A DNA stretch of 64,000 nt from contig JASBYO010000002.1 in the NCBI GenBank assembly GCA_029983925.1, positions 5,937 to 69,936 of the forward strand, in the 5' to 3' direction. Position 1 is the first letter of the stretch; each line of letters begins with the position of its first letter. Below are positions 11,228 through 42,328 of the stretch, in pieces. Made by a program: the position numbers and the translations under genes. The stretch is from Flexilinea sp. GTDB lineage: Bacteria > Chloroflexota > Anaerolineae > Anaerolineales > Anaerolineaceae. The notes beneath the pieces are model-generated. The model saw only the letters and a program-made list of their open reading frames with translations. It searched no databases and had not been told where the DNA came from.

Positions 11228-12808
11228 ATGAAGAAATTTATCGTCCTGTTTGTCATTTTCGCAATTTCGATGGCAAGCATCCTGCCTGCCTTTGCCGCAG
11301 ATAACGAGAAAGCTTTTCAACTGATCAGCGCGGGCAATGATAGCCTCGGGGATAAAATCGAATATCCCTGGATGAATATGTATATGCTCGGCGGTCTGAT
11401 GTGGCGAACGCTGTTCTTCGTAGAAACCGATATGGTCACGATCGGTCCCGACCTGGCAAGCAGCTATACAATTTCCGACGATGGTCTGACCTATACCATC
11501 GATTTCGTCGGCGGCAAGTGGTCCGACGGCGAAGATATCACACTTGATGATGTCGTCTTCTCAATTAAGGCCAACTTGAAAGCGGCCGCCTCCAACTCTA
11601 TCTATACCAGCGCTTTCACTAAGATCGAGGGCGCTGAAGCTTGGCGGGACGGCACGGCTGAAGATCTCCCCGGTTTGATCGTTGACGGCAATCAGCTGAC
11701 GATTAAGCTGACCAGCCCGCACAACATCCTGCCGAACGTTCTCTGCCAGTTCACCATCCTTCCGGAGCACATTCTTAAAGATGCGGATCTGCTGGAAATC
11801 GCCAACAACGATTTCTGGTCTCGCCCGATAACCAGCGGCATGTACAAACTGGATGAATTTGTCGCCGGTTCTTATTACACCCTGGTCCCCAACGAATATT
11901 ATGACGGTCCGCGGCCGAAAATCGAAAAGGTCACCGTCAACTTCGTCGCAGATGTCGTGACGGCGGCGCAGGCCGGTCTGGTCGACATGACCAACACCAA
12001 CAACCAGTCTGTGATTGCCGAACTGAATAAGCTCCCCGGCATGACCATGTTCCCGGTCGATATTCTGTTCTATCGCTATTTTCTGGCCAATATCGAAGGT
12101 GTCGACGGCAATACGAACCCGGTAATGGCTGATATCCGCGTCCGTAAGGCAATCCTGCACGCGATCGACCGCGAAACCCTTGCGGAATCCCTGTTCCCGG
12201 GTCTCGCTTATATCTCCAACAGCGGCGTAGCCGGCGACAACCCGGCTTCCATCGGCACGGAATATGCCTATGATCCGGATCTCGCGCGTCAGCTCCTGGT
12301 CGACGCCGGTTGGGATTTCGACTATGTGCTGCGTATTCTGCTGTATTACAAGGATCAAACGTCTTTGGACTTCATGGACGCGATCGTCTATTACCTTGGC
12401 GAAATCGGCATGAAAGCTGAATATACGGTAACGTCAAACGGCACGCAGGATCTGTTCCAGACCCGCAATCATGATATCGGTTACAAAGGCCTGTCCGCGT
12501 TCGATATCAGCGAATGGTACGGCGAATACAACTCAGCCAACGCGAACTTCCGTATGGTCTTCGGCGGCGACACGGCCTTTGACGAATATATCAACGAATA
12601 TGCGTCCGCGACAAACCAGGAGGATAAGGACGCCGCGCTTACGAAACTGCAGGAAGTTGAAGCCGAAAAGGTTTACAAACTCCCGCTTTACACCATCGGC
12701 AACAACGTTTTCATCAATACCGACCGCGTTCAGCTGCCCGAAGGCATTACCTTCGGCAACCCGTGGTACAAGACCAATGTCCACTTTGAGGATTGGGAAC
12801 TGAAATAA
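11228..12808 (+). CDS. ABC transporter substrate-binding protein, family 5 (Opp/Dpp/Nik type)
   Basis: Signal peptide (FVIFAISMASILPAFAADN). Family-5 SBP size and overall sequence pattern. First gene of a five-gene importer operon. Confidence 0.9.
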   Translation: MKKFIVLFVIFAISMASILPAFAADNEKAFQLISAGNDSLGDKIEYPWMNMYMLGGLMWRTLFFVETDMVTIGPDLASSYTISDDGLTYTIDFVGGKWSDGEDITLDDVVFSIKANLKAAASNSIYTSAFTKIEGAEAWRDGTAEDLPGLIVDGNQLTIKLTSPHNILPNVLCQFTILPEHILKDADLLEIANNDFWSRPITSGMYKLDEFVAGSYYTLVPNEYYDGPRPKIEKVTVNFVADVVTAAQAGLVDMTNTNNQSVIAELNKLPGMTMFPVDILFYRYFLANIEGVDGNTNPVMADIRVRKAILHAIDRETLAESLFPGLAYISNSGVAGDNPASIGTEYAYDPDLARQLLVDAGWDFDYVLRILLYYKDQTSLDFMDAIVYYLGEIGMKAEYTVTSNGTQDLFQTRNHDIGYKGLSAFDISEWYGEYNSANANFRMVFGGDTAFDEYINEYASATNQEDKDAALTKLQEVEAEKVYKLPLYTIGNNVFINTDRVQLPEGITFGNPWYKTNVHFEDWELK

Positions 12809-12828
12809 AGCAACGAGGTTTGATATGA

Positions 12829-12870
12829 GAATGAAGGGGATGCGCGATGTTCTGCATATCCCCTTCATTC
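12829..12870 (+). terminator. Intercistronic hairpin after the SBP gene (partial terminator or mRNA stabiliser)
   Basis: Perfect 13-bp stem GAATGAAGGGGAT / ATCCCCTTCATTC with a 16-nt loop, followed by an A/T-rich tract. Confidence 0.5.
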
Positions 12871-12901
12871 TTAATAAATAAAAGAAAGGAGCGGTAATCC
12901 A

Positions 12902-13849
12902 TTGCTGAAATTTATTCTCAAAAAACTCATCCAGATGATCCCGATGCTTTTGTTTATCAGCTTCCTGGTCTTCGGCGCGCTGCAGCTGACCGGTATCGAT
13001 CCCGTCAGCTATATCGCAACGCCCGACATGGCGGCAAATCAAGAGAATCTGGACCTGCTGCGTGAACGGCTGGGGCTGAATCAGCCTTTTTTGATCCGCT
13101 ATTTCAATTGGGTCGGCGATATCCTGCGCGGAAATTTTGGCTACAGCATTACGAACGGGACGCCCATCGGCGTATTGATCGCTCAGCGCCTTCCGGCGAC
13201 AATCGAATTGGCATTGATCTCCATGGTCGTATCGGCGGTTCTTGGCATCTCGATCGGGATCGTCTCGGCAATCTATCAGAACAGCCCGATCGATTACCTT
13301 GGCCGCTTTTTTGCTGTCCTCGGGCAGGCGATCCCGCAGTTCTTTTTCGGGATATGCCTGATCCAGATATTTTCGATCAAGCTTGGGTGGCTTCCGTCCA
13401 GCGGCCGATATTCAACCTATGCGACGCCGCTCCGGCATTTTATCCTGCCGTGTCTGACCCTGACGCTGTCGCTGACTTCGGTTCTGATGCGCTACTCCCG
13501 CAACAACATGCTCGGCGTTCTGAACAGCGACTATATCAAGACCGCCCGCATGAAGGGCATCTCCGAAACCAAGGTCTACGTCAAGCACGCCTTCCGCAAC
13601 GCCATGCGGCCGGTGCTGGTGATCCTTTGTTTCCGTCTGCCGATGCTGATCAGCGGTTCGGTCGTTATCGAGTCCGTGTATAACTGGCCGGGTATCGGTT
13701 CCGTCATTACGGACGCCGTCATCGCCGGAGATTATCCGGTTGTTATGGTGACGACGCTGATGGTAGCGGCTTCCATTCTGATCGCGAGCTTCCTGGTAGA
13801 TGTCCTGACGGCGCTGTTGGATCCCCGCGTTCGCCTGGGCGAAGAATAA
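12902..13849 (+). CDS. ABC transporter permease (OppB/DppB type)
   Basis: TTG start giving MLKFILKKLIQMIPMLLF, the typical DppB N-terminus. Multiple TM segments. Confidence 0.9.
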   Translation: MLKFILKKLIQMIPMLLFISFLVFGALQLTGIDPVSYIATPDMAANQENLDLLRERLGLNQPFLIRYFNWVGDILRGNFGYSITNGTPIGVLIAQRLPATIELALISMVVSAVLGISIGIVSAIYQNSPIDYLGRFFAVLGQAIPQFFFGICLIQIFSIKLGWLPSSGRYSTYATPLRHFILPCLTLTLSLTSVLMRYSRNNMLGVLNSDYIKTARMKGISETKVYVKHAFRNAMRPVLVILCFRLPMLISGSVVIESVYNWPGIGSVITDAVIAGDYPVVMVTTLMVAASILIASFLVDVLTALLDPRVRLGEE

Positions 13850-13867
13850 GAAAAGGAGGTAAGACAG

Positions 13868-14734
13868 ATGGAACTGAACAAATCTCATGCGTCGAACATG
13901 TTCCAGAAAAATGTTCGGAAGTTCCTGCGCAACAAGTTGGCGATGATCGGCATGGTCGTGATGCTTATCATTCTGCTGATGTGCGTGTTCGCGCCGGTCT
14001 TTACTTCCTATCGCGCGGACCAGCCGGATTTTTCGGCGAGGACACAGCCGCCTAATCTCCCGCATATCTTAGGCACGGATAAACTTGGGAGAGACGTGTT
14101 TTCGCGCATCCTCTACGGCGGACGTTACTCGATCCTGATCGGCGTGACCGGAGCATTCTTCGGTTCGCTGATCGGCGTGATCCTCGGAGCGATCGCCGGA
14201 TATTTCGGGAAGCTGATTGATTCCGCGATCGTACGCCTCTCCGAGATATTCCAGACCGTTCCGAATATGATCCTGATTTTGATTTTGGGAGCGGTATTCG
14301 GAAGAAGCATCGGGAACTTGCTGTTCATCTTCGCGATAACAGGCTGGATGACGACCTTCCGCATCGTTCGCAACGAATTCATCGCGCTGAAAGGAGAGAC
14401 CTACGTGCAGGTCTGCGAAGCCTTCGGCATGTCGAAGATCGATATCATGTTCAAGCAGATCCTGCCGAACGTCATGTCTCCGGTCATCGTGGCGACAACG
14501 GTCAACGTGGCGCATTTCATCCTGTCTGAAGCCGGATTGAGCTTTATCGGCGTCGGCGTTCCTTCAGCTACGCCGACCTGGGGCAACATTCTGAATGCGG
14601 CGAAATCCCTGGACGTAATCTCGAATTACTGGTGGCTGTGGGTCGTTCCCGGCGTAGTCATCACTGTATTTGTGTTGGCCGTCAACTTCTTCGGCGACGG
14701 GCTGCGCGATGTGCTTGACCCGAAACAGCAGTAA
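13868..14734 (+). CDS. ABC transporter permease (OppC/DppC type)
   Basis: N-terminal KLAMIGMVVMLIILL, then HILGTDKLGRDVFSRILYG, typical of DppC-type permeases. Confidence 0.9.
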   Translation: MELNKSHASNMFQKNVRKFLRNKLAMIGMVVMLIILLMCVFAPVFTSYRADQPDFSARTQPPNLPHILGTDKLGRDVFSRILYGGRYSILIGVTGAFFGSLIGVILGAIAGYFGKLIDSAIVRLSEIFQTVPNMILILILGAVFGRSIGNLLFIFAITGWMTTFRIVRNEFIALKGETYVQVCEAFGMSKIDIMFKQILPNVMSPVIVATTVNVAHFILSEAGLSFIGVGVPSATPTWGNILNAAKSLDVISNYWWLWVVPGVVITVFVLAVNFFGDGLRDVLDPKQQ

Positions 14735-14747
14735 GGAGGCAGGATTG

Positions 14748-15779
14748 ATGGAACAAAAAGATATCGTATTGGATGTCCGGAAGCTGAACACCAGTTTTAT
14801 TTCAGACGGGGCAACCGTTCACATCGTCAAGGACGTTTCTTTCCAGCTGGAGCGGGGCAAAACGCTGGCGATCGTGGGCGAATCCGGCTGCGGAAAGAGC
14901 GTAACGGTCCATTCGATCGTCAAGCTGCTTCCGCAAAACGCCCGTTTCACTGCGGAGCAGGTGCTGTACCGCCGGCTGGATGAAAAAACGGGCGGCATTA
15001 CAGAATTCGACCTCGCGAAAATGGATCCGAAAGGGAAAGAGATGCGCTCGATGCGCGGAGCTGACCTTGGGATGGTTTTCCAGGATCCGATGTCCTCTCT
15101 GAACCCGGTGTATAGAGTCGGCGACCAGGTAGCCGAAGCGCTCATGGAACACAATAGAGGGATGAAAAAATCGGAGGCCCGGGAGAAGGTCCTCCAGATG
15201 TTCCGCAATCTGGGCATCCCCGATCCCGAAAGGCGGATCATGGATTATCCGCATCAATTTTCCGGCGGGATGAAGCAGCGCGTCGTGATCGCTATCGCGA
15301 TGATTAATAACCCTGAGATCATCATTGCCGACGAACCGACGACAGCGCTCGACGTAACAATCCAAGCGCAGATCATGGAACTCATGAAGGAGCTGCAGCT
15401 GAATATGGGCAAATCCATTATCCTGATTACCCATAATATCGGGCTGGTAGCGGAACAGGCGGAGGATGTTTGCGTGATGTACATGGGACGCATCGTGGAA
15501 TTCGGCTCGCTGGAGCAAATCTTCGAAAACCCTTTGCATCCCTATACCAAAGCGCTGCTGCGCAGCGTGCCTGTACTCGGGCTCGCAGATGACCAGAAAC
15601 TGGAAACGATTCCCGGAGCGACGCCGAACCCAGCCAGCCTGGGCGTCGGCTGCGAATTTGCCGACCGCTGCCCGGAACGCAGCGAAGCTTGCAGCGCGAA
15701 GAACGTTCCCGCTTATGAAGTTGAGCCGAGGCACCGGGTACGCTGTATAAAGTTCAGCCAGTTTAAGGAGGTGGATTAA
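14748..15779 (+). CDS. ABC transporter ATP-binding protein (OppD/DppD type)
   Basis: Walker A GESGCGKS, signature FSGGMKQR, Walker B IIIADEPTTALD, C-terminal oligopeptide-type extension. The ATG at 14748 follows an AAGGAGG RBS. Confidence 0.9.
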   Translation: MEQKDIVLDVRKLNTSFISDGATVHIVKDVSFQLERGKTLAIVGESGCGKSVTVHSIVKLLPQNARFTAEQVLYRRLDEKTGGITEFDLAKMDPKGKEMRSMRGADLGMVFQDPMSSLNPVYRVGDQVAEALMEHNRGMKKSEAREKVLQMFRNLGIPDPERRIMDYPHQFSGGMKQRVVIAIAMINNPEIIIADEPTTALDVTIQAQIMELMKELQLNMGKSIILITHNIGLVAEQAEDVCVMYMGRIVEFGSLEQIFENPLHPYTKALLRSVPVLGLADDQKLETIPGATPNPASLGVGCEFADRCPERSEACSAKNVPAYEVEPRHRVRCIKFSQFKEVD

Positions 15780-19388: not shown

Positions 19389-20417
19389 TCACGCTTCGCT
19401 CAAAATCGGCTTGATCACATCGTCGATCATCTCCCGCAGGATCCCCGCGCTGCGGTCGAACTTTTCCTGATCCGCCCGGCTCAGCGGCAGCCGAATATTC
19501 TCGCGGACGCCCTCATGATTGATCAGCGTCGGCACGCCGATAAATAAATCCTGATGACCATACTCGCCGTTCTGCAGCACCGACAGCGTCAGCAGCGTAT
19601 TTTCGTTATTCAGAACGGCCTGAACGAGACGGTTCAACGACAGCCCGATCCCGTAATAGGTCGATTTTTTGCGGTTGATAATTTCGTATGCGGCCTGTTG
19701 GACCTGGCGATAAATCGTTTCGAGTTCAGTCAAATCGCGCCCCGACTCCGCGATGTATTCAAGTAATTTTTTCGCGCCGATATACGCATGCTCCCAGGGA
19801 ACAAAACTCGAATCGCCGTGTTCGCCCATCACCAACGCATGAATATTCGTCGGCGAAATCTCTAAATACTCGCTCATCAGATAACGCAGCCGCGCCGTGT
19901 CCAAGATCGTTCCCGACCCGATAACCTTATGCGCCGGCAGGCCGGAAACACGGTATGCGGCATAGGACATGACGTCGACCGGATTCGACGCGACGATCAG
20001 GATGCCGTCAAATCCGGATTTCATGATATTTTCGCAAACCGATTTCATAATCCTGGCGTTTGTCGCGGTCATATCCAGGCGCGATTGGCCCGGTTTCTGG
20101 GCTGTTCCGGCCGTAATCACGACAATTTCCGCGTCTTCGCACTCCTCATACCCGCCCGCCTTGATATTCATATGATTCCGAGAATAAGGGAGTCCATGCT
20201 GAAGATCCATCGCTTCGCCGATCGCTTTTTCCCGATCAACGTCAATAAGGACCAGCTCGTCGACGCCGCCGGTCGTCAAAAAAGTATACGCCATACTCAT
20301 ACCGACGAATCCGGTTCCAACCAAGCAAACCTTCCGATCTTTCTTTCCGCTGCAAGGCGGTAACGGCCCAAATTCCTTTTTATCCGGGCGGCTCATTTTT
20401 TTCCCAATCGTTTCCAT
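19389..20417 (-). CDS. ldh: L-lactate dehydrogenase
   Basis: KVCLVGTGFVGMSMAY (Rossmann), LIDVDREKAIGEAMDLQHG, GEHGDS. The ~25-aa N-terminal extension makes the exact start uncertain (alternative ATG at 20396). Confidence 0.9.
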   Translation of the reverse strand: METIGKKMSRPDKKEFGPLPPCSGKKDRKVCLVGTGFVGMSMAYTFLTTGGVDELVLIDVDREKAIGEAMDLQHGLPYSRNHMNIKAGGYEECEDAEIVVITAGTAQKPGQSRLDMTATNARIMKSVCENIMKSGFDGILIVASNPVDVMSYAAYRVSGLPAHKVIGSGTILDTARLRYLMSEYLEISPTNIHALVMGEHGDSSFVPWEHAYIGAKKLLEYIAESGRDLTELETIYRQVQQAAYEIINRKKSTYYGIGLSLNRLVQAVLNNENTLLTLSVLQNGEYGHQDLFIGVPTLINHEGVRENIRLPLSRADQEKFDRSAGILREMIDDVIKPILSEA

Positions 20418-20677
20418 AAATAGATTCCAATCTTTCCAAATTCCGCTGCGATGAAAATCTCGCGGCGGGTTAAATTTTCCGGCGCCAGAAGCGGATTCCG
20501 ATTCGTCCGTTCCGGCTTACCGCAATCGTACCTGACAAGCGGGCCTTTTTCCGTTTTATTTCCAACGGGAATCCTGTTTTCTGCGATTATAATCAAACCC
20601 GCCGTTAGATAATTCTAACTCATGGACGTCAAGTCATAAAGAAAACGCCGGCCAAAGCGCCGGCCGAAAGGAAAACA

Positions 20678-21904
20678 ATGAACAAATATTTCAAGCTGAC
20701 CGAAAAAGTATTCGACATAACCGAACGCTATCCGCAGCTTCTCGACCTGTTCGTTGCGAAAGGCTTCGAAAACCTGCGCAATGAAACGCTGCGAAAGACG
20801 CTAGGGAAAACGATCAGCGTTGAAAACGCTCTCAAAATGAAGAAAATCGATCCCGAACTTTTTGAGAAAGAGATGATCGAACGGATCGAAAACCGGAGAT
20901 GGAATTTCGGGGACGGATTAACTGAAGCCAAGATTGAAAGCGAGACGGCGATCGGATCGATCGAGGGCGTCCTGCCCTGCCCGGTCAAGCTTCAGCTTTT
21001 AGAAAAGTTTGAGAATTTTCTCGAATCTCAAAAAATTGACCTTAACGTCGATTTACGCTCAGCCAGTTTGGGCCTCGAGCATATCGCCGAAAAAGTCCGT
21101 AACAGCGAAAGCGAAGACGATCTCGCCGATATCTACATGTCGGCCGGATTCAACCTCTTTTTCGACAAAAAGTTGATCGGAAAATACATGGAACAGGACG
21201 TTTTCCGCGACATGTCCGGATTCGAACACATCAACCCCGATTTCGAAAACGCGGCGATCGATCTCCGAGATCCGCTCAGGCGTTATTCAATTATCGCAGT
21301 CATTCCCGCCGTTCTGATCGTCAATAAAACGCTGCTCGGCGGCCGGCCGTATCCAAAGAGTTGGGCCGATATCTTGAAACCTGAATTCAGGAACAGCGTC
21401 TCGCTGCCGGTTAAAGATCTCGACATGTTTAACGCCGTCATGCTCGGGATTTACAAGCTCTACGGCTTCGAGGGGATCCGCAAATTAGGCCGGAACCTGT
21501 TGGAAGGAATGCATCCGGCGCAGATGGTCAAAGGCGCGAAATCAAGCCGGGGAACCGCCCCGGCCGTCAGCGTCGTTCCGTATTTCTTTGCACAGATGGC
21601 GAAAGAAGGCGGATCGCTCGAGATCGTCTGGCCGGAAGAAGGAGCGATAATCAGTCCGATTTTCCTGATTGCGAAAGCCGGCGCGCGCGAACGCATGAAA
21701 CCGATCCTCGATTTCCTGTATTCGAAGGAAATCGGCGAAACGATCCATGTCGGCGGGAAATTCCCCTCGACGCTCCCCTTCCTCGATAATCGCCTTGGGA
21801 AAGAGCAAAAATTCGTCTGGATCGGCTGGGACACGATTCATTCGCAAGACATCGGCCGATTGCTTCGCGACGCTGAAGAAGCCTTTTCGGATAAGCCAAG
21901 ATAA
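20678..21904 (+). CDS. Cytoplasmic protein: DUF1858-like N-terminal helical module fused to a periplasmic-binding-protein (class II SBP) fold
   Basis: No signal peptide. N-terminus: KLTEKVFDITERYPQLLDLFVAKGFENL. The C-terminal 300 aa resemble FbpA/PotD-type binding proteins (WADILKPEF..., VSVVPYFFAQMAKEGGSLEIVWPEEGAIISPIF). Confidence 0.75.
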   Translation: MNKYFKLTEKVFDITERYPQLLDLFVAKGFENLRNETLRKTLGKTISVENALKMKKIDPELFEKEMIERIENRRWNFGDGLTEAKIESETAIGSIEGVLPCPVKLQLLEKFENFLESQKIDLNVDLRSASLGLEHIAEKVRNSESEDDLADIYMSAGFNLFFDKKLIGKYMEQDVFRDMSGFEHINPDFENAAIDLRDPLRRYSIIAVIPAVLIVNKTLLGGRPYPKSWADILKPEFRNSVSLPVKDLDMFNAVMLGIYKLYGFEGIRKLGRNLLEGMHPAQMVKGAKSSRGTAPAVSVVPYFFAQMAKEGGSLEIVWPEEGAIISPIFLIAKAGARERMKPILDFLYSKEIGETIHVGGKFPSTLPFLDNRLGKEQKFVWIGWDTIHSQDIGRLLRDAEEAFSDKPR

Positions 21905-21920
21905 ACCGCGGGGATTCGGA

Positions 21921-22610
21921 ATGAATTTAACAATTTTTTCAGGTCCGCCGTCGTCAGGGAAAACGTCCGTTATCCTGAAAACGATCGACGCTTTCCGAAA
22001 GCAGGGGAAAAAAGTCGGCGTCGTCAAGTTCGACTGCTTATACACCGACGACGACCTTTTATACGAGAAAGCGGGCGTCCCGGTCAAAAAAGGGCTCTCA
22101 GGGGGACTCTGCCCCGACCATTTTTTCGCTTCAAATATCGAAGGCGTCGTAAAATGGGGCGTCCGCGAAGGCGTCGACCTGCTCGTCAGCGAATCAGCCG
22201 GGCTGTGCAACCGCTGCTCGCCTTATCTCGCCGACGTTAAGGGCGTCTGCGTCATTGACAACCTCTCCGGGATTAATACGCCGAAGAAGATCGGACCGAT
22301 GTTGAAATCCGCCGATATCGTCGTCATTACCAAAGGCGATATCGTTTCCCAGGCCGAACGCGAAGTCTTCGCCGCGCGCGTCAGCGCCGTCAATCCGCGC
22401 GCGCTGGTGATGCATGTCAACGGACTGAGCGGCCAGGGCGCTTACGAACTCAGCACGCTTATCTACCGCGGCGACAGCGATATTCAGTCGGTTCAAGGCA
22501 TGAAACTGCGCTTTCCGATGCCGGCGGCGATGTGTTCTTACTGCCTGGGCGAAACGCGGATCGGCGAATCGTATCAACTCGGCAATTCAAAGAAGATGAA
22601 TTGGGAATAG
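21921..22610 (+). CDS. G3E-family P-loop GTPase (UreG/HypB-like metallochaperone candidate)
   Basis: Walker A GPPSSGKTS, GGLCPDH (CPH-type metal motif as in UreG), ESAGLCNRC (switch/Walker B region), TKGD (NKxD variant), C-terminal CSYC. Confidence 0.75.
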   Translation: MNLTIFSGPPSSGKTSVILKTIDAFRKQGKKVGVVKFDCLYTDDDLLYEKAGVPVKKGLSGGLCPDHFFASNIEGVVKWGVREGVDLLVSESAGLCNRCSPYLADVKGVCVIDNLSGINTPKKIGPMLKSADIVVITKGDIVSQAEREVFAARVSAVNPRALVMHVNGLSGQGAYELSTLIYRGDSDIQSVQGMKLRFPMPAAMCSYCLGETRIGESYQLGNSKKMNWE

Positions 22611-22652
22611 AAATGAAGAAGCTTTTAAAGCAAAAGAAAAGGGATTTTTTAC

Positions 22653-23699
22653 ATGATTGACCGGCTGACGATCGCGCAGGTTTTAGAATCGTACCCGTTC
22701 GCGCGGGATTTTCTCGACCAGAACCGCCTTAACGTCAGCGGAAGCGAACATCTCACTTTCGCCGAATTCCTCAAAAGAATCGACGCGGACGAAATCGAAG
22801 ACCAGGCGCTTAGAATCGAGACGCTCCAAGACGATCTCAACCGCTACATCGAACAAATCCTCGATTTTCTGGGCGTCGAGGAAAGCGGCGCCGTCCGTTC
22901 GTTAACGATCCTTCCGGGACATGATAAAGATAAGACGCCGGAAACTTTCGAGCGTCTCGATATTTACCGATCCCAAATCGTATCGATCGTCGGGCCGACC
23001 GGCTCGGGGAAAAGCCGGCTCCTCGCCGATATCGAATGGGCGGCGCAGCGCGACACGCCGACCGGACGGGCGATCTTGATCAACGGAGAGAACCCCGACC
23101 CCAAATGGCGTTACTCATCCAACAACAAGTTAGTCGCTCAATTATCACAGAATATGAATTTCGTCATGGATCTCAGCGTAGGAGAATTTATCGAAATGCA
23201 CGCCGAAAGCCGGATGATCGGGAACCGCGCGGAAATCAAAGCAAAAATTCTCGCCGAAGCGAACCGCTTAGCCGGAGAATCGTTTTTAGCCTCGGCGCCG
23301 GTCACCAGCCTGAGCGGCGGTCAATCGCGCGCCCTGATGATCGCCGACACGGCCATTTTAAGCGCCTCTCCGATCGTCCTTATCGACGAAATCGAAAACG
23401 CCGGAATCGACCGCAGGAAAGCGCTCGATCTCCTCGTCTCTCAGGATAAGATCGTCCTGATGGCGACGCACGACCCGCTGCTGGCGTTGCTGGCGGACCG
23501 GCGTATCGTGATTCAAAACGGCGGGATTCGTAAAGTCGTCGAAACCCGCGCGGAAGAGAAAGCGCTCCTGCTGGAATTCAATCAAATCGACGCCGTCATG
23601 CAGGAAGCGCGCCGCAAACTCCGCGCCGGGGAACGGCTGGGCGAAGTCGACGGTAAAATCGGGCTTAGATTCCCCGCCGACGACCGCCGCTTCGCTTAA
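22653..23699 (+). CDS. Soluble ABC-type ATPase with DUF1858-like N-terminal module (no cognate permease nearby)
   Basis: N-terminus: RLTIAQVLESYPFARDFLDQNRL. Walker A GPTGSGKS, signature LSGGQSRAL, Walker B IVLIDEIENAGID. Confidence 0.8.
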   Translation: MIDRLTIAQVLESYPFARDFLDQNRLNVSGSEHLTFAEFLKRIDADEIEDQALRIETLQDDLNRYIEQILDFLGVEESGAVRSLTILPGHDKDKTPETFERLDIYRSQIVSIVGPTGSGKSRLLADIEWAAQRDTPTGRAILINGENPDPKWRYSSNNKLVAQLSQNMNFVMDLSVGEFIEMHAESRMIGNRAEIKAKILAEANRLAGESFLASAPVTSLSGGQSRALMIADTAILSASPIVLIDEIENAGIDRRKALDLLVSQDKIVLMATHDPLLALLADRRIVIQNGGIRKVVETRAEEKALLLEFNQIDAVMQEARRKLRAGERLGEVDGKIGLRFPADDRRFA

Positions 23700-24164
23700 A
23701 TAAATTCAGGGGAACGGCTATCGGCGAATCCGGCCCGGAGGATTCCGATCGTTTGAACTTTTCTTCCGATTTCGGTTCGTCCCTATCGCTCGTTTCCGCG
23801 TCAGGCAGCGCGGAAGCAAACGCGTCGAAATTTAAAAAGATCGGACCGCGAATCCATGATATTTCGCGCATTTCCCGCGCATCGCGGCCCGATCGCCCGC
23901 TTCCGCCACATCTGCCGCTCCGGCAGGCTTGAATCCTGAAAATATGGCGGATTTTGCCATACCCGCGTTGCGTTCGAATCCCGTCTCCGTAGGGCTCGGA
24001 TATAAGGCGGTTCCCGTAACGCCGGATTTCAGTCAGCTCTTGCGTAAAAGCCGTTGAAAACGGCAGAACGAACCTCTTTGAAGCGTAATACAGGGACATA
24101 CATATACGGCCCGGCAGAAAACGCGGCGGCGGAAGATAAATTGACGGGCCGCTCTCCGCATCTT

Positions 24165-24207
24165 AAAAAAGCATCCCGACGCCGGTATGACAGTCGGGAT
24201 GTTTTTT
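24165..24207 (-). terminator. Rho-independent (bidirectional) terminator downstream of ygeW
   Basis: 9-bp stem CATCCCGAC / GTCGGGATG flanked by A-run and T-run. On the minus strand it is followed by CTTTTTT. Confidence 0.75.
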
Positions 24208-24223
24208 CTATATGGATTAATTT

Positions 24224-25417
24224 TTAGCCGAGGAAGCGAAGCGGCTTCTTGTTGAGCATGTCTTCCAAAACCGCGGCCGGGTTCTTGACCTTGCTGAGGA
24301 AGATCATCGCCGCGATGATATACGGCTTGTAGCTGGCTTCTTTATAAAGCGGGACGCGATAGCGATCGAATACCGACGCTTCGACTTCGCCCTTCTTGCA
24401 GCTGACGCCGGTAATATCCGCCGGGAGACAGTGCATATACAGCGCCTTGCCGTCTTTCGTCGTCTTCATCAAATCTTCCGTGCATTCCCAATCGGTATGT
24501 TCGGCGTTCTGGGCCAGGAGAACTTTCTCGAGCGCTTTAATACCGTCGGTATCGCCTTCGCCGTACAGGTTCGTCCGTTTTTCCATCGCTGCAAACGGCG
24601 CCCAGCTCTTCGGGTAAACGATATCGGCGTCAACGAAAGCTTCCGCCATCGAGTTGGTTTTCGAGAATTTTCCGCCCGCGGCCGCCGCGTTCTTCGCCGC
24701 GCCAGCTTCAACTTCCGGCAGAACCTCGTAGCCCTTCGGATGCGCCAGGACAACGTCCATTCCGAAGCGCGTCATCAAACCGATAACGCCCTGCGGAACC
24801 GAGAGCGGCTTCCCGTAAGAAGGCGAATAAGCCCAGGTCATGGCGATTTTCTTGCCCTTGAGTTTATCGACGCCGCCGAAATGGTTAATAATGTGGAGCA
24901 TGTCCGACATAGACTGCGTCGGATGATCGATATCGCACTGCAAGTTAACGAGCGTCGGGCGCTGTTCAAGGACGCCTTCTTCGTTGCCTTCCTTGACGTA
25001 CTGGCTAAACTCGCGCATGTAGGCGTTGCCCTTGCCGATATACATATCGTCGCGAATACCGACAACGTCCGCCATGAACGAAATCATGTTCGCCGTTTCG
25101 CGGACAGTTTCGCCGTGCGCGACCTGCGATTTGCCTTCCTCAAAATCCTGAACTTCCAAACCGAGGAGGTTCGCGGCGCTGGCGAAGCTGAAGCGCGTAC
25201 GCGTCGAATTATCGCGGAAGAGCGAAATCGCCAATCCGGAATCGAAGATGCGCGAGGAGATATTCTTTTCGCGCAAGCCGCGTAAAATATCGGCGACCGC
25301 AAACGTCGCGCGGATTTCGTCGTCGTTCTTTTCCCAAGTCAGCAGGAAATCGTCGTTGAACATCTTCGAGCAGTCGAGGCTCTTCAATTGCTGAATTAAG
25401 GCTTTCGTATTTTCCAT
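24224..25417 (-). CDS. ygeW: YgeW-type knotted carbamoyltransferase
   Basis: Near-colinear with E. coli YgeW as I recall it: FLLTWE, SLFRDNSTRTRFSFASA, GKSQVAHGETVRETANMISF, NLQCDIDHPTQSM, HCLPADITGVSC. Confidence 0.85.
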   Translation of the reverse strand: MENTKALIQQLKSLDCSKMFNDDFLLTWEKNDDEIRATFAVADILRGLREKNISSRIFDSGLAISLFRDNSTRTRFSFASAANLLGLEVQDFEEGKSQVAHGETVRETANMISFMADVVGIRDDMYIGKGNAYMREFSQYVKEGNEEGVLEQRPTLVNLQCDIDHPTQSMSDMLHIINHFGGVDKLKGKKIAMTWAYSPSYGKPLSVPQGVIGLMTRFGMDVVLAHPKGYEVLPEVEAGAAKNAAAAGGKFSKTNSMAEAFVDADIVYPKSWAPFAAMEKRTNLYGEGDTDGIKALEKVLLAQNAEHTDWECTEDLMKTTKDGKALYMHCLPADITGVSCKKGEVEASVFDRYRVPLYKEASYKPYIIAAMIFLSKVKNPAAVLEDMLNKKPLRFLG

Positions 25418-27064: not shown

Positions 27065-27358
27065 TTAATAAATAATATCTTTTCCCATCATCACAATCGG
27101 TAAAAGCAAGATCAATCCGACGACCCATGCGACCGTCTCCAGCCTTACGCCCCCGACCGTATGTTCCGCCCCGCTGCGATTAAGATGTTTCGCAAGGCAA
27201 AAATTCACCAGCGTAACCATAACATGAAAAACAACGATCGCTATATATTGTTGTTTATCTGTTTTAAAAATCCGGGGCGCATACTTGCTCAACAAAGCCA
27301 GACCGCCGAAATAATCCGCTACGACGATCAGCAATCCGTATCCTCTAAAACTTATCAT
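27065..27358 (-). CDS. Small integral membrane protein, 97 aa
   Basis: Three hydrophobic segments (GLLIVVADYFGGLALL, IAIVVFHVMVTLVNFCLA, VAWVVGLILLLPIVMM). Followed by a terminator. No recognisable family. Confidence 0.5.
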   Translation of the reverse strand: MISFRGYGLLIVVADYFGGLALLSKYAPRIFKTDKQQYIAIVVFHVMVTLVNFCLAKHLNRSGAEHTVGGVRLETVAWVVGLILLLPIVMMGKDIIY

Positions 27359-27649
27359 CGCCTACCGCTTCAACACATTGTTAATCATTTCAGTATATAC
27401 CGGTATTGTACCAACGAATTCTTTAGATTCTTCGCGTTCTGCCCGGTAATTCCGATAAATCGCTTTATACCGCAGCGATCCGCCGAAAATCTGCCCTCGC
27501 TCAATTCGGAAATACGCAAAACCGCGAAAAAAAAGCCCGGCGCCGATCGCAGGATTCCGGCCTTGCCCCGCCCGTCCGAGAAATATGATTTTTCGCAAAA
27601 TACGCCCGGATACCAACGCCTGCAAAATATTCGTTGGTATAATTTTCTC

Positions 27650-28657
27650 ATGATCATCCGTAACGCTCAGCCGCCGCAACCGATTCTCGCCATCTCGCCG
27701 CCGAGTCTCGATTTTGGGCTCGTCAACTACGCCGCCGAGCCGACGGAAGGACATGGCATTGCCACGCTGACCGTCACGAACGACGGCGACCGCATGCTCG
27801 TGGGAAGAATCGCGATTCAGGTATCCTGGGTCAGCGTTTATCCCCCCGATTTTCGCTTAAGCCCGGGTGAAAGCAGCGACCATCTTTTCACCGTCCGCCG
27901 CGTCAACCAGCTCACCTGGAATTCGGGGCATAAACTCGGCTCCGAATTCGTCGCGTTGATCAACAGCAACGGCGGATCCGAAACGATCGGCGGTTATTAC
28001 TATATCGACAATAAAGAAATCGAAAAGAAAAAATCCCCCTTTACGCGGCGTATACTCGGCGTCGTCGCGTTGGCCGTCCTGATTACGGCGGCGATTCTCT
28101 ATTTCGTCCTCTATTCAGACCGCCAGATCCTCGAAATGCGCGGCACGGAAAACGTTTCCGCGCTTTATACGCAGCTGGCGGAAACAATCCTTTCGGATAT
28201 CGCGCTGAACGAACCGACGCCGTCGCGAACCGCACCGGGAATCGTCCTCCCGATCGCGAATATCCCCGGCGGCGCTCCCAGCGGCGAAGAAGCAACCTTT
28301 ACGCCCTGGCCGCAGGCGGACTATCCGGACCCGGAATCATTCGTTCGCTCCTACTATGATACGCTGAACGCCCGGAATTATTCCCTCGCGTGGTGGATGC
28401 TGTCAGAGAAGGTCCAAATCGCCTGCTGTTACAATAAGGGCGTCAATCCCATCGATTATTTTACGACCGTTTGGAGCGAGATTTCCGATATCGAAGTCGT
28501 CTACGCCTATCTCCAGAATCCCGGAGAAAATCCTGCCGTTCTCAATATCGCTATCAATTATACGAATGAGGACGGGACAAAATCGCAATACGATTTACGC
28601 GTTGAAGTTATTTCTTCCTCAACTCAAGGAACGCTCCTGATCGACTTGATCCAGTAA
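27650..28657 (+). CDS. Single-pass membrane protein with an N-terminal Ig-like domain and a C-terminal NTF2-like domain (hypothetical)
   Basis: Start moved to the ATG at 27650, because the upstream part of the track ORF overlaps the 27065-27358 gene and looks non-coding. TM segment ILGVVALAVLITAAILYFVLY. Confidence 0.55.
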   Translation: MIIRNAQPPQPILAISPPSLDFGLVNYAAEPTEGHGIATLTVTNDGDRMLVGRIAIQVSWVSVYPPDFRLSPGESSDHLFTVRRVNQLTWNSGHKLGSEFVALINSNGGSETIGGYYYIDNKEIEKKKSPFTRRILGVVALAVLITAAILYFVLYSDRQILEMRGTENVSALYTQLAETILSDIALNEPTPSRTAPGIVLPIANIPGGAPSGEEATFTPWPQADYPDPESFVRSYYDTLNARNYSLAWWMLSEKVQIACCYNKGVNPIDYFTTVWSEISDIEVVYAYLQNPGENPAVLNIAINYTNEDGTKSQYDLRVEVISSSTQGTLLIDLIQ

Positions 28658-36901: not shown

Positions 36902-37660
36902 ATGCGTTGGATCGACCGCTTCGCGTATAACAATCGTATCCGCAGGTTGGATCCGGCCGTCAAAGCCGGATTCAGCCTGATCATGATCCTGGTCTGCCTC
37001 GGTTTCGACAGGCCGTATGTCAGCGCCGCCGCGCTTTTGCTGATCCTTATTCTTTCCGTTTCGCTCGCCGGACTTCCGCTCCGATCTTTCCTGAAAATCC
37101 TCGCCGGAGAAGCCGCGTTCCTGATATTAAGCGTCGTCCCGATCGCGGTCAGTATCGTCCGGCCGTCCGCGGCGGAACCGGTTCCGGTTTTTCCGCTGAA
37201 GCTGCTGATAACGCGCGATTCGGCGCTGAACGCGCTGAATCTTCTGACGCGGACGCTAGCCTGTATCAGCGCGATGAATTTTTTGTCGATGACGACGCCG
37301 GTTGTCGATCTGATCGACTTGGCCGGACGGCCGCGCGTTCCGGAAATAATGATTGATTTGATGACGCTGATTTATCGCTTCATATTCACTTTATTCGACT
37401 GTTTGGAACGGATGACCGCCGCGAAAGAATCCCGTCTCGGATTCCGTTCACTCCGAACCGCATTCCGCAGCGCCGGCGAAATCGCCGCTAATTTATTCCT
37501 CGAAACCTATCGGAGAAGCCGGAAGCTTCAAGTTTCACTGGAAAGCCGCTGTTGGGACGGGGCGTTTCGCGTCATTCCGCAAACGTACGACCCGATCCGT
37601 TCCCTTTGGGAAAGAGCCCCTTCCCGAAATCAGCCCGTACAAAATCGGGAAACGCTATGA
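36902..37660 (+). CDS. cbiQ: ECF transporter transmembrane (T) component CbiQ
   Basis: Position after cbiN. The DPAVKAGF start and polytopic profile are typical of CbiQ/EcfT. Confidence 0.85.
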   Translation: MRWIDRFAYNNRIRRLDPAVKAGFSLIMILVCLGFDRPYVSAAALLLILILSVSLAGLPLRSFLKILAGEAAFLILSVVPIAVSIVRPSAAEPVPVFPLKLLITRDSALNALNLLTRTLACISAMNFLSMTTPVVDLIDLAGRPRVPEIMIDLMTLIYRFIFTLFDCLERMTAAKESRLGFRSLRTAFRSAGEIAANLFLETYRRSRKLQVSLESRCWDGAFRVIPQTYDPIRSLWERAPSRNQPVQNRETL

Positions 37661-38382
37661 CCGAATTATTCTTTGACGATATCGTTTATACGTATCCCGG
37701 CGTTAACGCCCCGGCGCTGAACGGCCTTTCGCTGCGAATCGGATCAGGGAAACGAATCGCCCTGATCGGGCGGAACGGCGGGGGAAAATCGACGCTGATC
37801 CTGGTCGCGAACGGAATTATCAGGCCGGATCGGGGAACGCTCCGTATCGACGGCGCGCCGGTCGATTATAAGAAAAAAGGAATTTACCGACTGCGGGAAC
37901 GCGTCGGCGTCGTTTTCCAGAACCCGGAAGACCAGCTTTTCAGCGCCAACGTTTATCAGGATATCAGCTCAGGACCGCTGAATCTCGGACTTTCGATCGG
38001 CGAAGCGCGCGAACGCGTCGAAGAAGTCGCCGAACGCTGCGGGCTGACGGCGCTTCTCGACCGCCCGACCCATGCGCTCAGCGGCGGAGAAAAAACCCGC
38101 GCCGCCCTGGCCGGAATTCTCGCGATGCGCCCCGAATTCCTTTTCGCCGACGAAGTGACCAACGCGTTAGACCCGTGGATCCGGATCCAGGTCCTGAACA
38201 TCCTGGACAGCTGGGCGGCGGAAAATCACACCGTCGTCCTCTCGACGCACGACTGGGATTTAGCGGCGAACTGGGCGGACGAGATCGTCTGGCTCGAAAA
38301 GGGAAAAATTTACCGCCAGGGAAAACCCGAAGAAATATTTCCTGGCGGGACCCAACCGGAAAGGTACCGACGCGATGGCTGA
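37657..38382 (+). CDS. cbiO: Cobalt ECF transporter ATPase CbiO
   Basis: ATGA overlap with the cbiQ stop. Walker A GRNGGGKST, signature LSGGEKTR, Walker B FLFADEVTNALD. Confidence 0.9.
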   Translation: MTELFFDDIVYTYPGVNAPALNGLSLRIGSGKRIALIGRNGGGKSTLILVANGIIRPDRGTLRIDGAPVDYKKKGIYRLRERVGVVFQNPEDQLFSANVYQDISSGPLNLGLSIGEARERVEEVAERCGLTALLDRPTHALSGGEKTRAALAGILAMRPEFLFADEVTNALDPWIRIQVLNILDSWAAENHTVVLSTHDWDLAANWADEIVWLEKGKIYRQGKPEEIFPGGTQPERYRRDG

Positions 38383-38920
38383 AATAAACAAACAAACCGC
38401 AAAAGGATTGATCGTCGTTTTTACCGGCAACGGGAAAGGGAAAACGTCCGCCGCAATGGGCGTCATGACCCGCGCCGCCGGTCACGGATTTAACGTTTCC
38501 GTCATTCAATTTTTGAAAAATCCGGGGCGCGTTTACGGCGAAGCCGTTTCCGCGCAAAAATTAGGCGTGCCGTTTGAAAGCCTCGGAACCGGATTCGTTT
38601 TCAAAAAGGATCAAAACGGAGAAGATTATCAGGCGGCGATAGCGGCCTGGGAGAAAGCGAAGGAGCGGATTCAATCCCAACCCGAAGGCGTCATTATCCT
38701 CGACGAAATCACCTATCCGCTCAATTTCGGCTGGATCGATCCGGACGAACTGATCGGTTGGCTCAAGATCAACAAGCCGCCGCAGCTTCACCTGGTTCTG
38801 ACCGGACGGAACGCGCCGGAGAAACTGATCGAATTTGCCGACATGGTCACCGAAATGAAAGAAATCAAACATCCGTATCGGCTTCAAAATATTCCGGCGC
38901 AAAAAGGCATCGATTTTTAG
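38375..38920 (+). CDS. cobO: Cob(I)yrinic acid a,c-diamide adenosyltransferase (CobO/BtuR type)
   Basis: GLIVVFTGNGKGKTSAAMG P-loop, ILDEITY, and KHPY near the C-terminus. Confidence 0.9.
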   Translation: MAEINKQTAKGLIVVFTGNGKGKTSAAMGVMTRAAGHGFNVSVIQFLKNPGRVYGEAVSAQKLGVPFESLGTGFVFKKDQNGEDYQAAIAAWEKAKERIQSQPEGVIILDEITYPLNFGWIDPDELIGWLKINKPPQLHLVLTGRNAPEKLIEFADMVTEMKEIKHPYRLQNIPAQKGIDF

Positions 38921-38932
38921 GAGTTATGCATC

Positions 38933-41576: not shown

Positions 41577-42328
41577 GCGGATCCATTCGAATCATCGGCA
41601 CCGGGCCTGGCAATCTATCCTGGTGCGCCCCCGGCGCAATCTCCGCACTCGAAAAATCGACGGTGATTGTCGGCTATCAGACCTACCTGGACCAAATCGC
41701 GGAACTCTGCCCGCAGACGCCGCGTTACGGGAACGGGATGCGCCGGGAAGTCGAACGGGCGAAAAAAGCGATCGCTTTCGCCCGCGAGGGTCATCAAGTC
41801 GCCGTCGTCTCCGGAGGCGACGCCGGCATCTACGGCATGGCGGGGCTGGTACTGGAACTCCTCTGTCTGGATGATACAGCGATCGAGGTCGAAGTCCTGC
41901 CCGGGATCACGGCGCTGACCGCCGCGGCCGCGCTGCTCGGCGCGCCGTTGATGAGCGATTTCGCCGCGATCAGCCTGAGCGACTACCTCGTCCCGAGCGA
42001 AACGATTTTCCGAAGGCTCAGAGCCGCCGCCTTAGCCGATTTCGCGATCTGCTTATATAATCCGACCTCGGCGAGACGGCGCGGCATTTTTGAAACGGCG
42101 TGTTCGATCCTGATCGAAACGCTCGGCGAAGCGCGCCCGGTCGGGCTTGTGCGCGCAGCTTTCCGCCCGGCTCAGTCGGTCCAAATCGGTCTGCTGAGCG
42201 AGCTGAGCCGGATGGAACTGGGGATGGATTCGATCGTGATCGTCGGAAACAGCGCGACGAAAATCGCGCGCGGCCGCATGATCAGTTCGCGCGGGTACCG
42301 CCTGACGGAGAATTCGGCGAATTTTTAA
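41573..42328 (+). CDS. cbiH: Cobalt-precorrin-3B C17-methyltransferase
   Basis: IRIIGTGPGN...VIVGYQTYLDQI...VVSGGDAGIYGMAG. Confidence 0.85.
   Translation: MSGSIRIIGTGPGNLSWCAPGAISALEKSTVIVGYQTYLDQIAELCPQTPRYGNGMRREVERAKKAIAFAREGHQVAVVSGGDAGIYGMAGLVLELLCLDDTAIEVEVLPGITALTAAAALLGAPLMSDFAAISLSDYLVPSETIFRRLRAAALADFAICLYNPTSARRRGIFETACSILIETLGEARPVGLVRAAFRPAQSVQIGLLSELSRMELGMDSIVIVGNSATKIARGRMISSRGYRLTENSANF

Follow-up and report, generated by a model that had tools for sequence, protein, structure and literature searches.

What do a substrate-binding protein with no export signal, a small GTPase and an ATP-binding cassette (ABC) ATPase with no permease do together, when their genes stand side by side? 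This question is raised by three genes, which we call the triad, in a 64,000-nucleotide stretch of Flexilinea sp. (Chloroflexota; GenBank assembly GCA_029983925.1, contig JASBYO010000002.1, positions 5,937 to 69,936); the whole stretch is referred to below as the window. An earlier sequence-only reading had proposed a nucleoside triphosphate-driven system that handles a metal or metallocofactor, and our analysis supports this: a cytoplasmic binding-protein fold, a GTPase most like HypB and UreG and an orphan ABC ATPase have been verified, and a DUF1858-type module common to two of the proteins is moderately well supported. We find that the triad belongs to the predicted HcpR (nitrosative-stress) regulon, as read from its promoters. 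We think, with moderate confidence, that under nitrosative stress it serves as soluble machinery, driven by nucleotides, for assembling or repairing iron or iron-sulfur (Fe-S) centres, and that its most probable client or partner is the hybrid cluster protein Hcp. Hcp is a nitric oxide (NO) reductase with a [4Fe-2S-2O] cluster, and HcpR is an NO-responsive activator of the CRP/FNR family.

All three genes lie on the forward strand. Gene 1 (20678-21904) encodes 408 residues, comprising a DUF1858 four-helix module (residues 7-62), a linker and a class-II binding-protein, or Venus-flytrap, body (residues ~93-405). Gene 2 (21921-22610; 229 residues) encodes a P-loop GTPase of the G3E class that forms a distinct and extremely conserved subfamily. 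Gene 3 (22653-23699; 348 residues) encodes a soluble ABC ATPase preceded by ~75-100 residues of a probable, divergent DUF1858-like domain. Pfam assigns DUF1858 and SBP_bac_6 to gene 1, cobW/HypB/UreG to gene 2 and ABC_tran to gene 3. The tight, co-directional spacing described earlier was borne out, with gaps of 16 nt between genes 1 and 2 and 42 nt between genes 2 and 3, and a purine-rich ribosome-binding site stands ahead of each start. The longest open reading frame (ORF) of gene 2 opens at 21747, within gene 1; the ATG at 21921 (MNLTIFSGPPSSGKTS) is the start that matches all orthologues. The motifs that had been picked out by eye in genes 2 and 3 (GPPSSGKTS, GGLCPDH, ESAGLCNRC, TKGD and CSYC; Walker A, LSGGQ and Walker B) are all present and invariant in the orthologues.

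The analysis covered 85 loci (the 80 best and five others), 1.42 Mb in total, whose 1435 neighbouring ORFs were clustered all against all; a scan of one genome per species found at least 511 genomes with a relative of gene 2. The order of the three genes is identical in 85 of 85 loci, drawn from at least five phyla, so that the triad is conserved as a unit, as the earlier proposal had presupposed; a permuted order appears in relatives of 44-49% identity. On the Bacillota side, the carriers are Lachnospiraceae, Oscillospiraceae, Tissierellia, Peptostreptococcaceae, Negativicutes (Pectinatus, Pelosinus) and a metagenome-assembled genome labelled Paenibacillaceae, and beyond it Chloroflexota (Flexilinea), Fusobacteriota (Leptotrichia, Fusobacterium) and Spirochaetota (Treponema). 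The architecture of gene 1 was found in 978 database clusters, and gene 2 has more than 6000 database matches. Among the 1.84 billion representatives of a library clustered at 50% identity, only 64 clusters match gene 2 at E<=1e-30 and 471 at E<=1e-3, from which we conclude that its family is compact and well separated from other G3E branches.

Median identity to the window among the loci is 50% for gene 1, 63% for gene 3 and 80% for gene 2 (minimum 76%). The Fusobacterium gene 2 is 72% identical to that of the window, and across phyla the range is 72-92%, a level normally seen only in core housekeeping proteins. Synonymous sites are saturated, with third positions in codons for identical residues only 26-51% identical, and the GC content at third codon positions follows each host (0.10-0.59, vs 0.69 in the window). 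The triad genes are therefore old residents rather than recent transfers, and very strong purifying selection accounts for the protein identity (72-88% in this comparison).

The evidence for regulon membership lies upstream of gene 1. Working from the hcp promoters found in clostridia, Treponema, Fusobacterium, Thermotogales and Bacteroides, Rodionov et al. (2005; PMC1274295) defined an HcpR2 operator, GTAACnnnnGTTAC; for C. thermocellum they gave a second HcpR profile, TGTTGnAnnTnCAACA. In that work the regulons of F. nucleatum and T. denticola were said to hold only hcp, and no triad gene figures in its tables. Perfect boxes of the GTAACnnnnGTTAC kind (GTAAC-N4-GTTAC type) number 57 in the 1.42 Mb, with 33 upstream of gene 1 and 23 upstream of hcp; the remaining one is at the end of a short contig, just after a small Cys-rich gene. 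In 17 loci, such a box precedes gene 1 and no hcp is in view. Perfect TGTTG-N6-CAACA boxes are similarly placed, 11 of the 14 being upstream of gene 1 (in Lacrimispora, Anaerocolumna, C. minihomine and others). When both types are counted (GTAAC-N4-GTTAC or GTTG-N6-CAAC), 68 of the 75 loci with enough upstream sequence have an HcpR-type box ahead of gene 1, and none has both. At 16 gene 1 sites and 17 hcp sites of the GTAAC type, and at 11 of 11 gene 1 sites of the TGTTG type, the start of a -10-like hexamer lies 29 nt beyond the centre of the box. This spacing would put the predicted HcpR box at about -41.5, the position of a class II CRP/FNR activator.

Fusobacterium vincentii SB055 is the clearest individual example. 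Its triad (at 2.086 Mb) and hcp (at 0.952 Mb) are 1.1 Mb apart, and each is preceded, ~100 bp upstream, by an identical GTAACATTTGTTAC. The sequence concerned (NZ_CP084075.1, our loci L099 and L100; 2.1 Mb) is filed in PLSDB as plasmid pSB055A and is evidently the chromosome. Gene 3 of this strain has a shorter ORF (283 residues) after a 260-nt gap, which suggests a frameshift or an alternative start.

The window itself holds no perfect box of either HcpR type. What stands upstream of its gene 1 is GTTTTATTTCCAAC (20553-20566, forward strand), a putative degenerate box of the C. thermocellum GTTG-N6-CAAC type in a GTTT-N6-CAAC variant, with its centre 28 nt before the -10. In an alignment of three Anaerolineae promoters, its equivalents are GTTTGATTTCCAAC (oral taxon 439) and GTTTGAAATCCAAC (Flexilinea). 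The flanked 16-mer matches the published C. thermocellum frdX-hcp HcpR site, TGTTGTATTTCCAACA, at 13 of 16 bases and the Lacrimispora triad box at 12 of 16; we read it as a diverged HcpR-type site, although the match is no more than suggestive. The candidate -10 hexamer of the triad promoter, TATAAT (20588-20593, forward strand), was read from the sequence and is invariant in the three Anaerolineae. A generic promoter and terminator scan returned nothing above shuffle expectation; TATAAT escaped it for want of a -35 match, which a class II activated promoter would not be expected to have. No riboswitch or small RNA was detected in 20300-24300 by an Rfam scan.

Just downstream of the -10 is a perfect palindrome, GTTAGATAATTCTAAC (20604-20619, forward strand), the sole copy in the window and a candidate operator of a second regulator. 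The pattern, GTTAG-N6-CTAAC, occurs 19 times in the 1.42 Mb vs ~1.5 expected from composition, by estimate; many of the sites are orthologous copies in Lacrimispora, leaving ~11 independent cases. Five copies are upstream of gene 1. Others are upstream of sufCBD in Lacrimispora, a FecCD iron-uptake ABC operon in Lachnoanaerobaculum, AraC-linked genes and, in Oscillibacter, a sod-dps pair that precedes the triad. Sites lie at L011 8729, L014 240, L016 8729, L036 8583, L063 15652, L023 18282, L054 7375, and L042 7570 and 19219 (locus and position). From this set of targets, it looks like the operator of an iron, Fe-S or oxidative-stress regulator.

The gene neighbourhoods lead to the same partner as the promoters. 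Outside the triad, just two families come back in different lineages, Hcp in 29 loci and a Crp/Fnr regulator in 21; each of them invariably lies downstream and on the same strand, usually in the arrangement triad-hcpR-hcp. Among the 63 loci with at least 5 kb downstream, hcp is present in 22. The assignment of this neighbour of ~550 residues as Hcp is secure in NCBIfam terms (NF003658, 874 bits vs a cut-off of 367). No permease family recurs in the 85 neighbourhoods, and neither does a hydrogenase, urease or carbon monoxide dehydrogenase (CODH) gene near the triad.

The other companions, listed here by locus, are specific to single lineages, but several are of a similar character. A pair consisting of a hypothetical protein and a hemerythrin is found near the triad in L013, L016 and L036, coming after hcp or the triad in the first two; it corresponds to CAC0759-COG3945 of Rodionov et al. 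(PMC1274295). In L036 (Muricomes, 11714-15612), the triad has downstream of it, in this order, a divergent Crp/Fnr gene, a perfect TGTTGCAAATGCAACA box, a 502-residue hemerythrin-PAS_10-DUF1858 protein, the hypothetical protein and the hemerythrin. A flavodiiron protein is a neighbour of the triad in L082, a nitroreductase with an ArsR regulator in L014 and a C_GCAxxG_C_C redox protein in L028. In Tissierellia loci, an 80-residue protein with two CxxC pairs (MHDGCTG...CIECG...CPHC) is encoded between gene 3 and hcp (L039 2887-3129, L030 11718-11957, L050 11796-12038 and eight more loci); it gives weak zinc-ribbon or HypA-like matches (E ~1e-3, under cut-off) and may be a fourth subunit in that group. 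Leptotrichia L046 has the triad followed directly by a tetrapyrrole methylase (TP_methylase) and CobU.

In the window, the triad is flanked on the opposite strand by genes for an L-lactate dehydrogenase (ldh), a BNR-repeat protein, a YgeW-like carbamoyltransferase and an M20 peptidase, and no permease adjoins it, in agreement with what the sequence-only reading had stated. An Opp-type transporter at 11-17 kb owns two ATPases. Synteny between the window and Anaerolineaceae bacterium oral taxon 439 extends through ldh, the triad, the carbamoyltransferase, M20 and onward. Two further features were recorded here. A 498-residue ORF at 27161-28657 has no Pfam match; a hydrophobic stretch (RRILGVVALAVLITAAILYFVLY) lies in the C-terminal half of its translation, and its long N-terminal part may be over-called. 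At 36902-49629, 13 kb from the triad, there is a co-directional anaerobic cobalamin biosynthesis cluster of higher GC content (0.57-0.62), with CbiQ, CbiK, a CbiG fusion, TP_methylases, CbiD and a CbiA-like amidase, then a BtuF-like binding protein and a FecCD permease.

The protein of gene 2 is nearest to HypB and UreG in both fold and sequence. It matches the cobW/HypB/UreG domain (PF02492) over residues 3-163 (8.6e-13), and its best NCBIfam models are HypB and then UreG. The six best Foldseek matches are all HypB or UreG structures (HypB 2hf8 at 1e-9, UreG 4hi0), spanning 1e-9 to 9e-8 at a TM score of ~0.6. The scores against curated models are far under their cut-offs: 48.6 bits for the HypB equivalog TIGR00073 (121.2), 30.1 for the UreG equivalog TIGR00101 (204.2) and 14 for ZigA (600), and MeaB is also far under its own. 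No urease genes lie near the window triad, and no hyp or hydrogenase genes are found in the 85 neighbourhoods.

Its motifs are Walker A (8-15), C64-P-D-H67, E91-S-A-G-L-C96-N-R-C99, C110, T137-K-G-D140 and C205-S-Y-C208. The extended Walker A, G8-PPSSGKT-S16, is invariant, as is E91-S-A-G94, the Walker B/switch II ExxG of the 'G3E' signature, which falls on the ESGG of UreG. In the same profile alignment, G-L-C64-P-D-H67 falls on the Ni-binding G-C-P-H, and the segment IDNLSGINTPKKIGP on UreG IDVAEGEKIPRKGGP (the family segment being aligned to UreG 'IDVAEGEKIPRKGGPGI'). T137-K-G-D140 falls on the NKxD of UreG (NKTD/NKID), keeping the Lys and Asp with Asn replaced by Thr; deep relatives have SKVD, TKID or TRAE at this position. 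The extra Cys residues noticed earlier in this G3E-type GTPase are real: Cys 39, 64, 96, 99, 110, 205 and 208, together with His67, are invariant in 48 sequences. The structure model has a mean predicted local distance difference test (pLDDT) of 72.5, and its low-confidence parts are confined to two segments, the loop with CPDH (60-68) and the tail with the C-terminal CxxC (202-229), which may become ordered on metal binding or dimerisation.

Gene 1 combines DUF1858 (PF08984, residues 7-62, 2.5e-16, 59.9 bits vs a gathering score of 32.2) with SBP_bac_6 (residues 147-389, 1.7e-74), and the profile of its N-terminal domain matches the DUF1858 structure 2fi0 at 1.5e-7. In the AlphaFold2 model (mean pLDDT 86.5), a short linker of low confidence joins the helical domain at the N-terminus to a binding-protein body of two lobes. 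The protein opens straight with the folded helical domain (pLDDT 84-90), and no hydrophobic leader, signal peptide or lipobox is present in 65 aligned members. A binding-protein body that stays in the cytoplasm, as proposed from the sequence alone, is therefore upheld; an export signal here, paired with a permease elsewhere, would have made it an ordinary importer, but these members have no such signal and no permease family recurs in the 85 neighbourhoods. The best Foldseek matches are P5PA (pyridoxal phosphate), AfuA (sugar phosphates), FutA/FbpA (ferric iron) and PotD, at 4e-14 to 1e-10 and a TM score of ~0.65, which places it in the cluster-D Venus-flytrap fold; one match is 6lkg, a binding protein of a two-component system. 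Invariant residues include L99-P-C101-P, S155/G157/F161-F162-D163, D247-L-D249, H279-P, P301/F303-F304 and W318-P. We assign no ligand from the alignments with these solved structures.

Gene 3 is a complete ABC ATPase with no membrane partner nearby, as had been claimed for it. It matches ABC_tran (PF00005) over residues 102-246 (1.7e-14), and Walker A (GPTGSGKS), the Q-loop (SQN), LSGGQ, Walker B (IVLIDE) and the H-switch (ATHD) are all at least 97% conserved. Its best solved relative is a generic nucleotide-binding domain (5xu1, 9e-10), and against transporter-ATPase NCBIfam models every score is far under the curated cut-off. The claim that it starts with a module similar to that of gene 1 held in part. 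The N-terminal domain of the window protein itself does not match PF08984 at E<=1; those of 21 of 39 orthologues do (best 1.1e-4; other families are matched by at most three each), and hhalign pairs the gene 3 and gene 1 profiles at E=1.1e-4 (probability 56%, 63 columns) with Y-P motifs in register. We regard it as moderately well supported, by these profile matches, that the N-terminal ~100 residues are a divergent DUF1858-like domain. TIGR03980, the 'hybrid cluster protein-associated redox disulfide domain', has no NCBIfam match in the N-terminal domains of genes 1 and 3.

More distant relatives indicate which parts of the triad are oldest. Clusters 35-49% identical to gene 2 keep the CPDH, GLCxRC, the CV Cys and the C-terminal CxxC, so that six Cys and the His are retained down to 35% identity, and they always adjoin an ABC ATPase that is ~45% identical to the core of gene 3 and lacks the N-terminal domain. 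In L092 (792-3199) and L093 (1510-3795), at 44-49% identity, the order is GTPase-ABC-SBP_bac_6 without DUF1858, beside a divergent Crp/Fnr gene and convergent to a NifH-like gene and two Oxidored_nitro (NifDK-like) genes with a BtuF/FecCD/ATPase transporter. L097 (1001-7725) has ABC-GTPase, a 198-residue Cys-rich protein, an FeS-domain (PF04060) protein, SufB-SufC-SufD and ferritin, and L095 (3806-7233) a second cobW-like gene, a radical SAM gene, the GTPase and the ABC ATPase; neither has a binding protein. As these deep relatives keep the GTPase and ABC pair, it is the ancient core, to which the binding protein and the DUF1858 modules were added later.

The metal, the physical complex and the client are what we infer from these observations. 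Iron or Fe-S is favoured because of the sufBCD and ferritin context of one deep relative, the hemerythrin and flavodiiron company, and the second operator held in common with suf and iron-uptake promoters. Maturation or repair specific to Hcp is favoured because hcp is the only specific recurrent neighbour; general repair of the RIC kind is its main rival. In a fuller form, the triad would be the first dedicated accessory machinery for the [4Fe-2S-2O] cluster of Hcp, with the GTPase as a fifth G3E branch (after HypB, UreG, MeaB and COG0523) handling iron or an Fe-S fragment in place of Ni, Co or Zn, an ABC motor like SufC, a cytoplasmic binding-protein scaffold and DUF1858 as the docking module of an NO-stress regulon. 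We put this forward tentatively, as a reasonable possibility.

A scheme of how such a machine might work can be drawn by analogy with HypB/UreG and SufC, and is offered as analogy, not as a result. HcpR would switch on the triad operon together with hcp. The GTPase would dimerise on GTP and hold iron or a small Fe-S unit at the dimer interface, with ligands from the CPDH loop, from the CxxC next to it and from the flexible CxxC near the C-terminus, mirroring nickel in HypB and UreG; GTP hydrolysis would release this cargo. ATP-driven dimerisation of the ABC ATPase could supply a power stroke that opens or remodels the complex or the client, as SufC may be pictured to do in SufBC2D. The binding-protein-like subunit could clamp a cargo or a partner in its cleft; to judge by its nearest folds (FbpA, AfuA, P5PA), such a cargo might be iron together with an anion, or else a ligand that is anionic or phosphorylated. 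The DUF1858 modules of subunits 1 and 3 might dock both to the same partner.

Several observations weigh against a machine devoted to Hcp. E. coli and Desulfovibrio make active Hcp and are not among the carriers found, so the triad is not universally required for assembly of the hybrid cluster. Physical linkage is partial, with hcp adjoining the triad in only about a third of loci and neither hcp nor hcpR present in the 64-kb window, where the box is also an imperfect variant. The HcpR boxes in general are predictions from the comparative-genomics motif of 2005, not binding data in these organisms. Deep relatives in other contexts, a nitrogenase-like cluster and a radical SAM gene, point to a broader role than Hcp alone. 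For gene 1, the PotD ligand residues are not kept in the alignments with solved structures, and the FbpA-type Tyr/Tyr/His/Glu iron set is not evident in those obtained. The called fusions of GTPase with ABC ATPase (P0362 and P0363; 509 and 613 residues) and of the C-terminal part of the binding protein with the GTPase (P0421; 350 residues) would, if genuine, speak for the unity of the triad, but they could be gene-calling artefacts, since genes 2 and 3 often overlap by 4 nt.

Some of the same facts suit a different account, in which the triad is a general iron-centre repair or iron-salvage system, an analogue of RIC/YtfE that serves many NO-damaged Fe-S or di-iron proteins or recycles iron from nitrosylated clusters, while Hcp is only a co-regulated NO sink. 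We hold this to be doubtful, though it is the main rival. The N-terminal domain of RIC (ScdA_N) is classed with DUF1858, and the sequence-only reading had cited DUF1858 modules on iron-centre repair proteins. The homology did not materialise: hhalign of the gene 1 and gene 3 profiles against E. coli YtfE gave E values of 0.06-0.1, which are not significant, and homology to RIC is not claimed. Nor does any of the three proteins contain a di-iron hemerythrin domain in Pfam. The account gains from the genomic setting, since the triad sits in the slot of RIC. The HcpR2 regulon of B. fragilis consists of hcp and dnrN (ytfE/RIC; PMC1274295), and in Pelobacter propionicus ric adjoins hcp, two observations that suggest a 'repair or maturation' slot for the triad within such NO regulons. 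It gains further from the two thirds of loci in which an HcpR box comes without an adjacent hcp, the hemerythrin neighbours (including the hemerythrin-PAS-DUF1858 protein), the sufBCD and ferritin beside L097, and the second operator common to suf, iron-uptake and sod-dps promoters. That Hcp is by far the commonest specific neighbour tells against it and keeps us with Hcp as the preferred client.

A chaperone for another metal or cofactor (nickel, cobalt, zinc, a tetrapyrrole or a corrinoid), with a client other than Hcp, seems to us improbable. It would be the conventional guess for gene 2, since the characterised G3E GTPases all handle Ni, Co, Zn or B12 (PMC9164220); gene 2 itself, however, is far under the HypB, UreG, MeaB and ZigA cut-offs and lacks the CxCC of COG0523. 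Contexts of the expected kind can be found, namely the tetrapyrrole methylase and CobU after the Leptotrichia triad, the cbi cluster 13 kb off in the window, the NifH/NifDK-like cluster with its BtuF/FecCD-type transporter beside the permuted relatives, and the small protein with a weak HypA-like zinc-ribbon match after gene 3 in Tissierellia. However, each is restricted to one lineage, whereas hcp and HcpR recur across phyla; L046 itself carries an HcpR box upstream of gene 1, and hydrogenase, urease and CODH genes are not recurrent nearby.

The triad might instead be a ligand-sensing or regulatory device, in which the binding-protein domain detects a small molecule, such as a phosphorylated metabolite or an oxyanion of nitrogen, and the two NTPases pass the signal on, perhaps to HcpR or Hcp. 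Cytoplasmic Venus-flytrap domains are often sensors, the nearest folds (P5PA and AfuA) bind small anionic ligands, 6lkg is among the Foldseek matches, and a Crp/Fnr gene is adjacent even in deep relatives. We still find it quite improbable, as the proteins have no output domain (DNA-binding, kinase or cyclase), the seven invariant Cys and the UreG-type metal motif argue for metal chemistry, and the GTPase and ABC pair persists in some relatives without the binding protein.

Parts of an ordinary ABC importer with its permease encoded elsewhere, as the public names of gene 1 ('ABC transporter substrate-binding protein', 'ABC-type Fe3+ transport system substrate-binding protein') and gene 3 ('ATP-binding cassette domain-containing protein') would have it, are very improbable given the folded, leaderless DUF1858 start of gene 1, the lack of a recurrent permease family in the 85 neighbourhoods, the GTPase between genes 1 and 3 everywhere, and a gene 3 product that has an extra N-terminal domain and falls under every transporter-ATPase cut-off.

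Each part of the triad comes from a known family; what is new is how they are combined, the predicted regulon to which they belong and the likely client. Cluster look-ups returned generic annotations only ('ABC transporter substrate-binding protein', 'GTP-binding protein', 'ATP-binding cassette domain-containing protein'), to which some public entries for gene 2 add 'cobalamin synthesis protein P47K'. Full-text searches in which the hybrid cluster protein was paired with cobW, G3E, GTPase or DUF1858 turned up no paper on the triad as a unit. According to a survey from 2026, no informative pattern emerges from 1476 hcp neighbourhoods (bioRxiv 10.1101/2025.09.14.676152). The 'ABC transporter genes' described beside clade B CODHs (PMC13592312) were considered as a possible triad and rejected, being complete importers with a permease and a lipid-anchored NMT1-type binding protein. 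In the literature, DUF1858 comes up only in passing: a Bradyrhizobium gene with it depends on NnrR (29-fold lower when nnrR is mutated), DrpB of nitrate respiration in Thermus includes it, and it occurs fused to SufT. All three are consistent with an NO and Fe-S theme.

The triad is a concrete, testable candidate for the building or upkeep of the Hcp hybrid cluster under NO attack. If the reading is true, an iron or Fe-S-handling branch would be added to the G3E GTPases, whose known members traffic Ni, Co, Zn and B12, a second ABC ATPase would join SufC as a soluble assembly motor, and DUF1858 would gain a role. Because gene 2 is present in many anaerobes of the mouth and gut that are exposed to NO from the host (Fusobacterium, Leptotrichia, Treponema and Lachnospiraceae), the triad may matter for colonisation and inflammation biology.

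Among known systems, HypB and UreG are the closest to gene 2. Both are G3E GTPases that deliver nickel, to [NiFe]-hydrogenase and urease, respectively. They have the fold, the P-loop and the ExxG Walker B in common with gene 2, which has a Cys-Pro-(Asp)-His loop, with an inserted Asp, at the position of the UreG CPH metal site; HypB has a metal ligand right after Walker B, where gene 2 has a Cys. They are only 21-24% identical to gene 2, in which CPDH replaces the CPH of UreG and TKGD its NKxD, and which has extras of its own: the CxxC after Walker B, C39, C110 and the C-terminal CxxC tail. The partners also differ, an ABC ATPase and a binding-protein-like protein rather than HypA or UreE/F/D, as does the regulation, with hcp rather than with hydrogenase or urease. 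The COG0523 proteins (CobW/ZigA/YeiR/ZNG1) have the same Pfam domain (PF02492) and G3E class; gene 2 differs in having neither the CxCC motif nor their C-terminal domain (CobW_C), and no Zur-type context was seen.

The body of gene 1 has the cluster-D fold of FbpA/FutA, AfuA, P5PA and PotD. Those proteins are periplasmic, whereas gene 1 is cytoplasmic, fused to DUF1858 and without a permease, and its invariant set centres on L-P-C-P, FFD, DLD, H-P and PYFF rather than on the ligand residues of PotD. For gene 3, the nearest functional parallel is SufC, a soluble ABC ATPase without a membrane domain that works within a cytoplasmic metallocluster assembly system (SufBC2D). Gene 3 is not a SufC orthologue, as no SufC model is among its 25 best NCBIfam matches, and it differs in its DUF1858-like domain and in having a GTPase and a binding-protein fold as partners rather than SufB and SufD.

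At the level of the whole system, RIC (YtfE, DnrN, ScdA) resembles the triad in being co-regulated with hcp by NO-responsive regulators, NsrR in enterobacteria and HcpR2 in B. fragilis. It is a di-iron protein, whereas the triad has no hemerythrin domain, is NTP-driven and comprises three subunits. The last comparison is with CooC, CooT and CooJ, which serve Ni-CODH, a structural relative of Hcp. CooC belongs to the MinD-type ATPases rather than to the G3E GTPases, the CODH system lacks both an ABC ATPase and a binding protein, and its maturation metal is nickel, to which no link was seen at the triad. The two would be alike in depending on NTPases to insert a metal where the active site of a CODH/HCP superfamily protein has a complex cluster based on Fe-S (PMC6006190).

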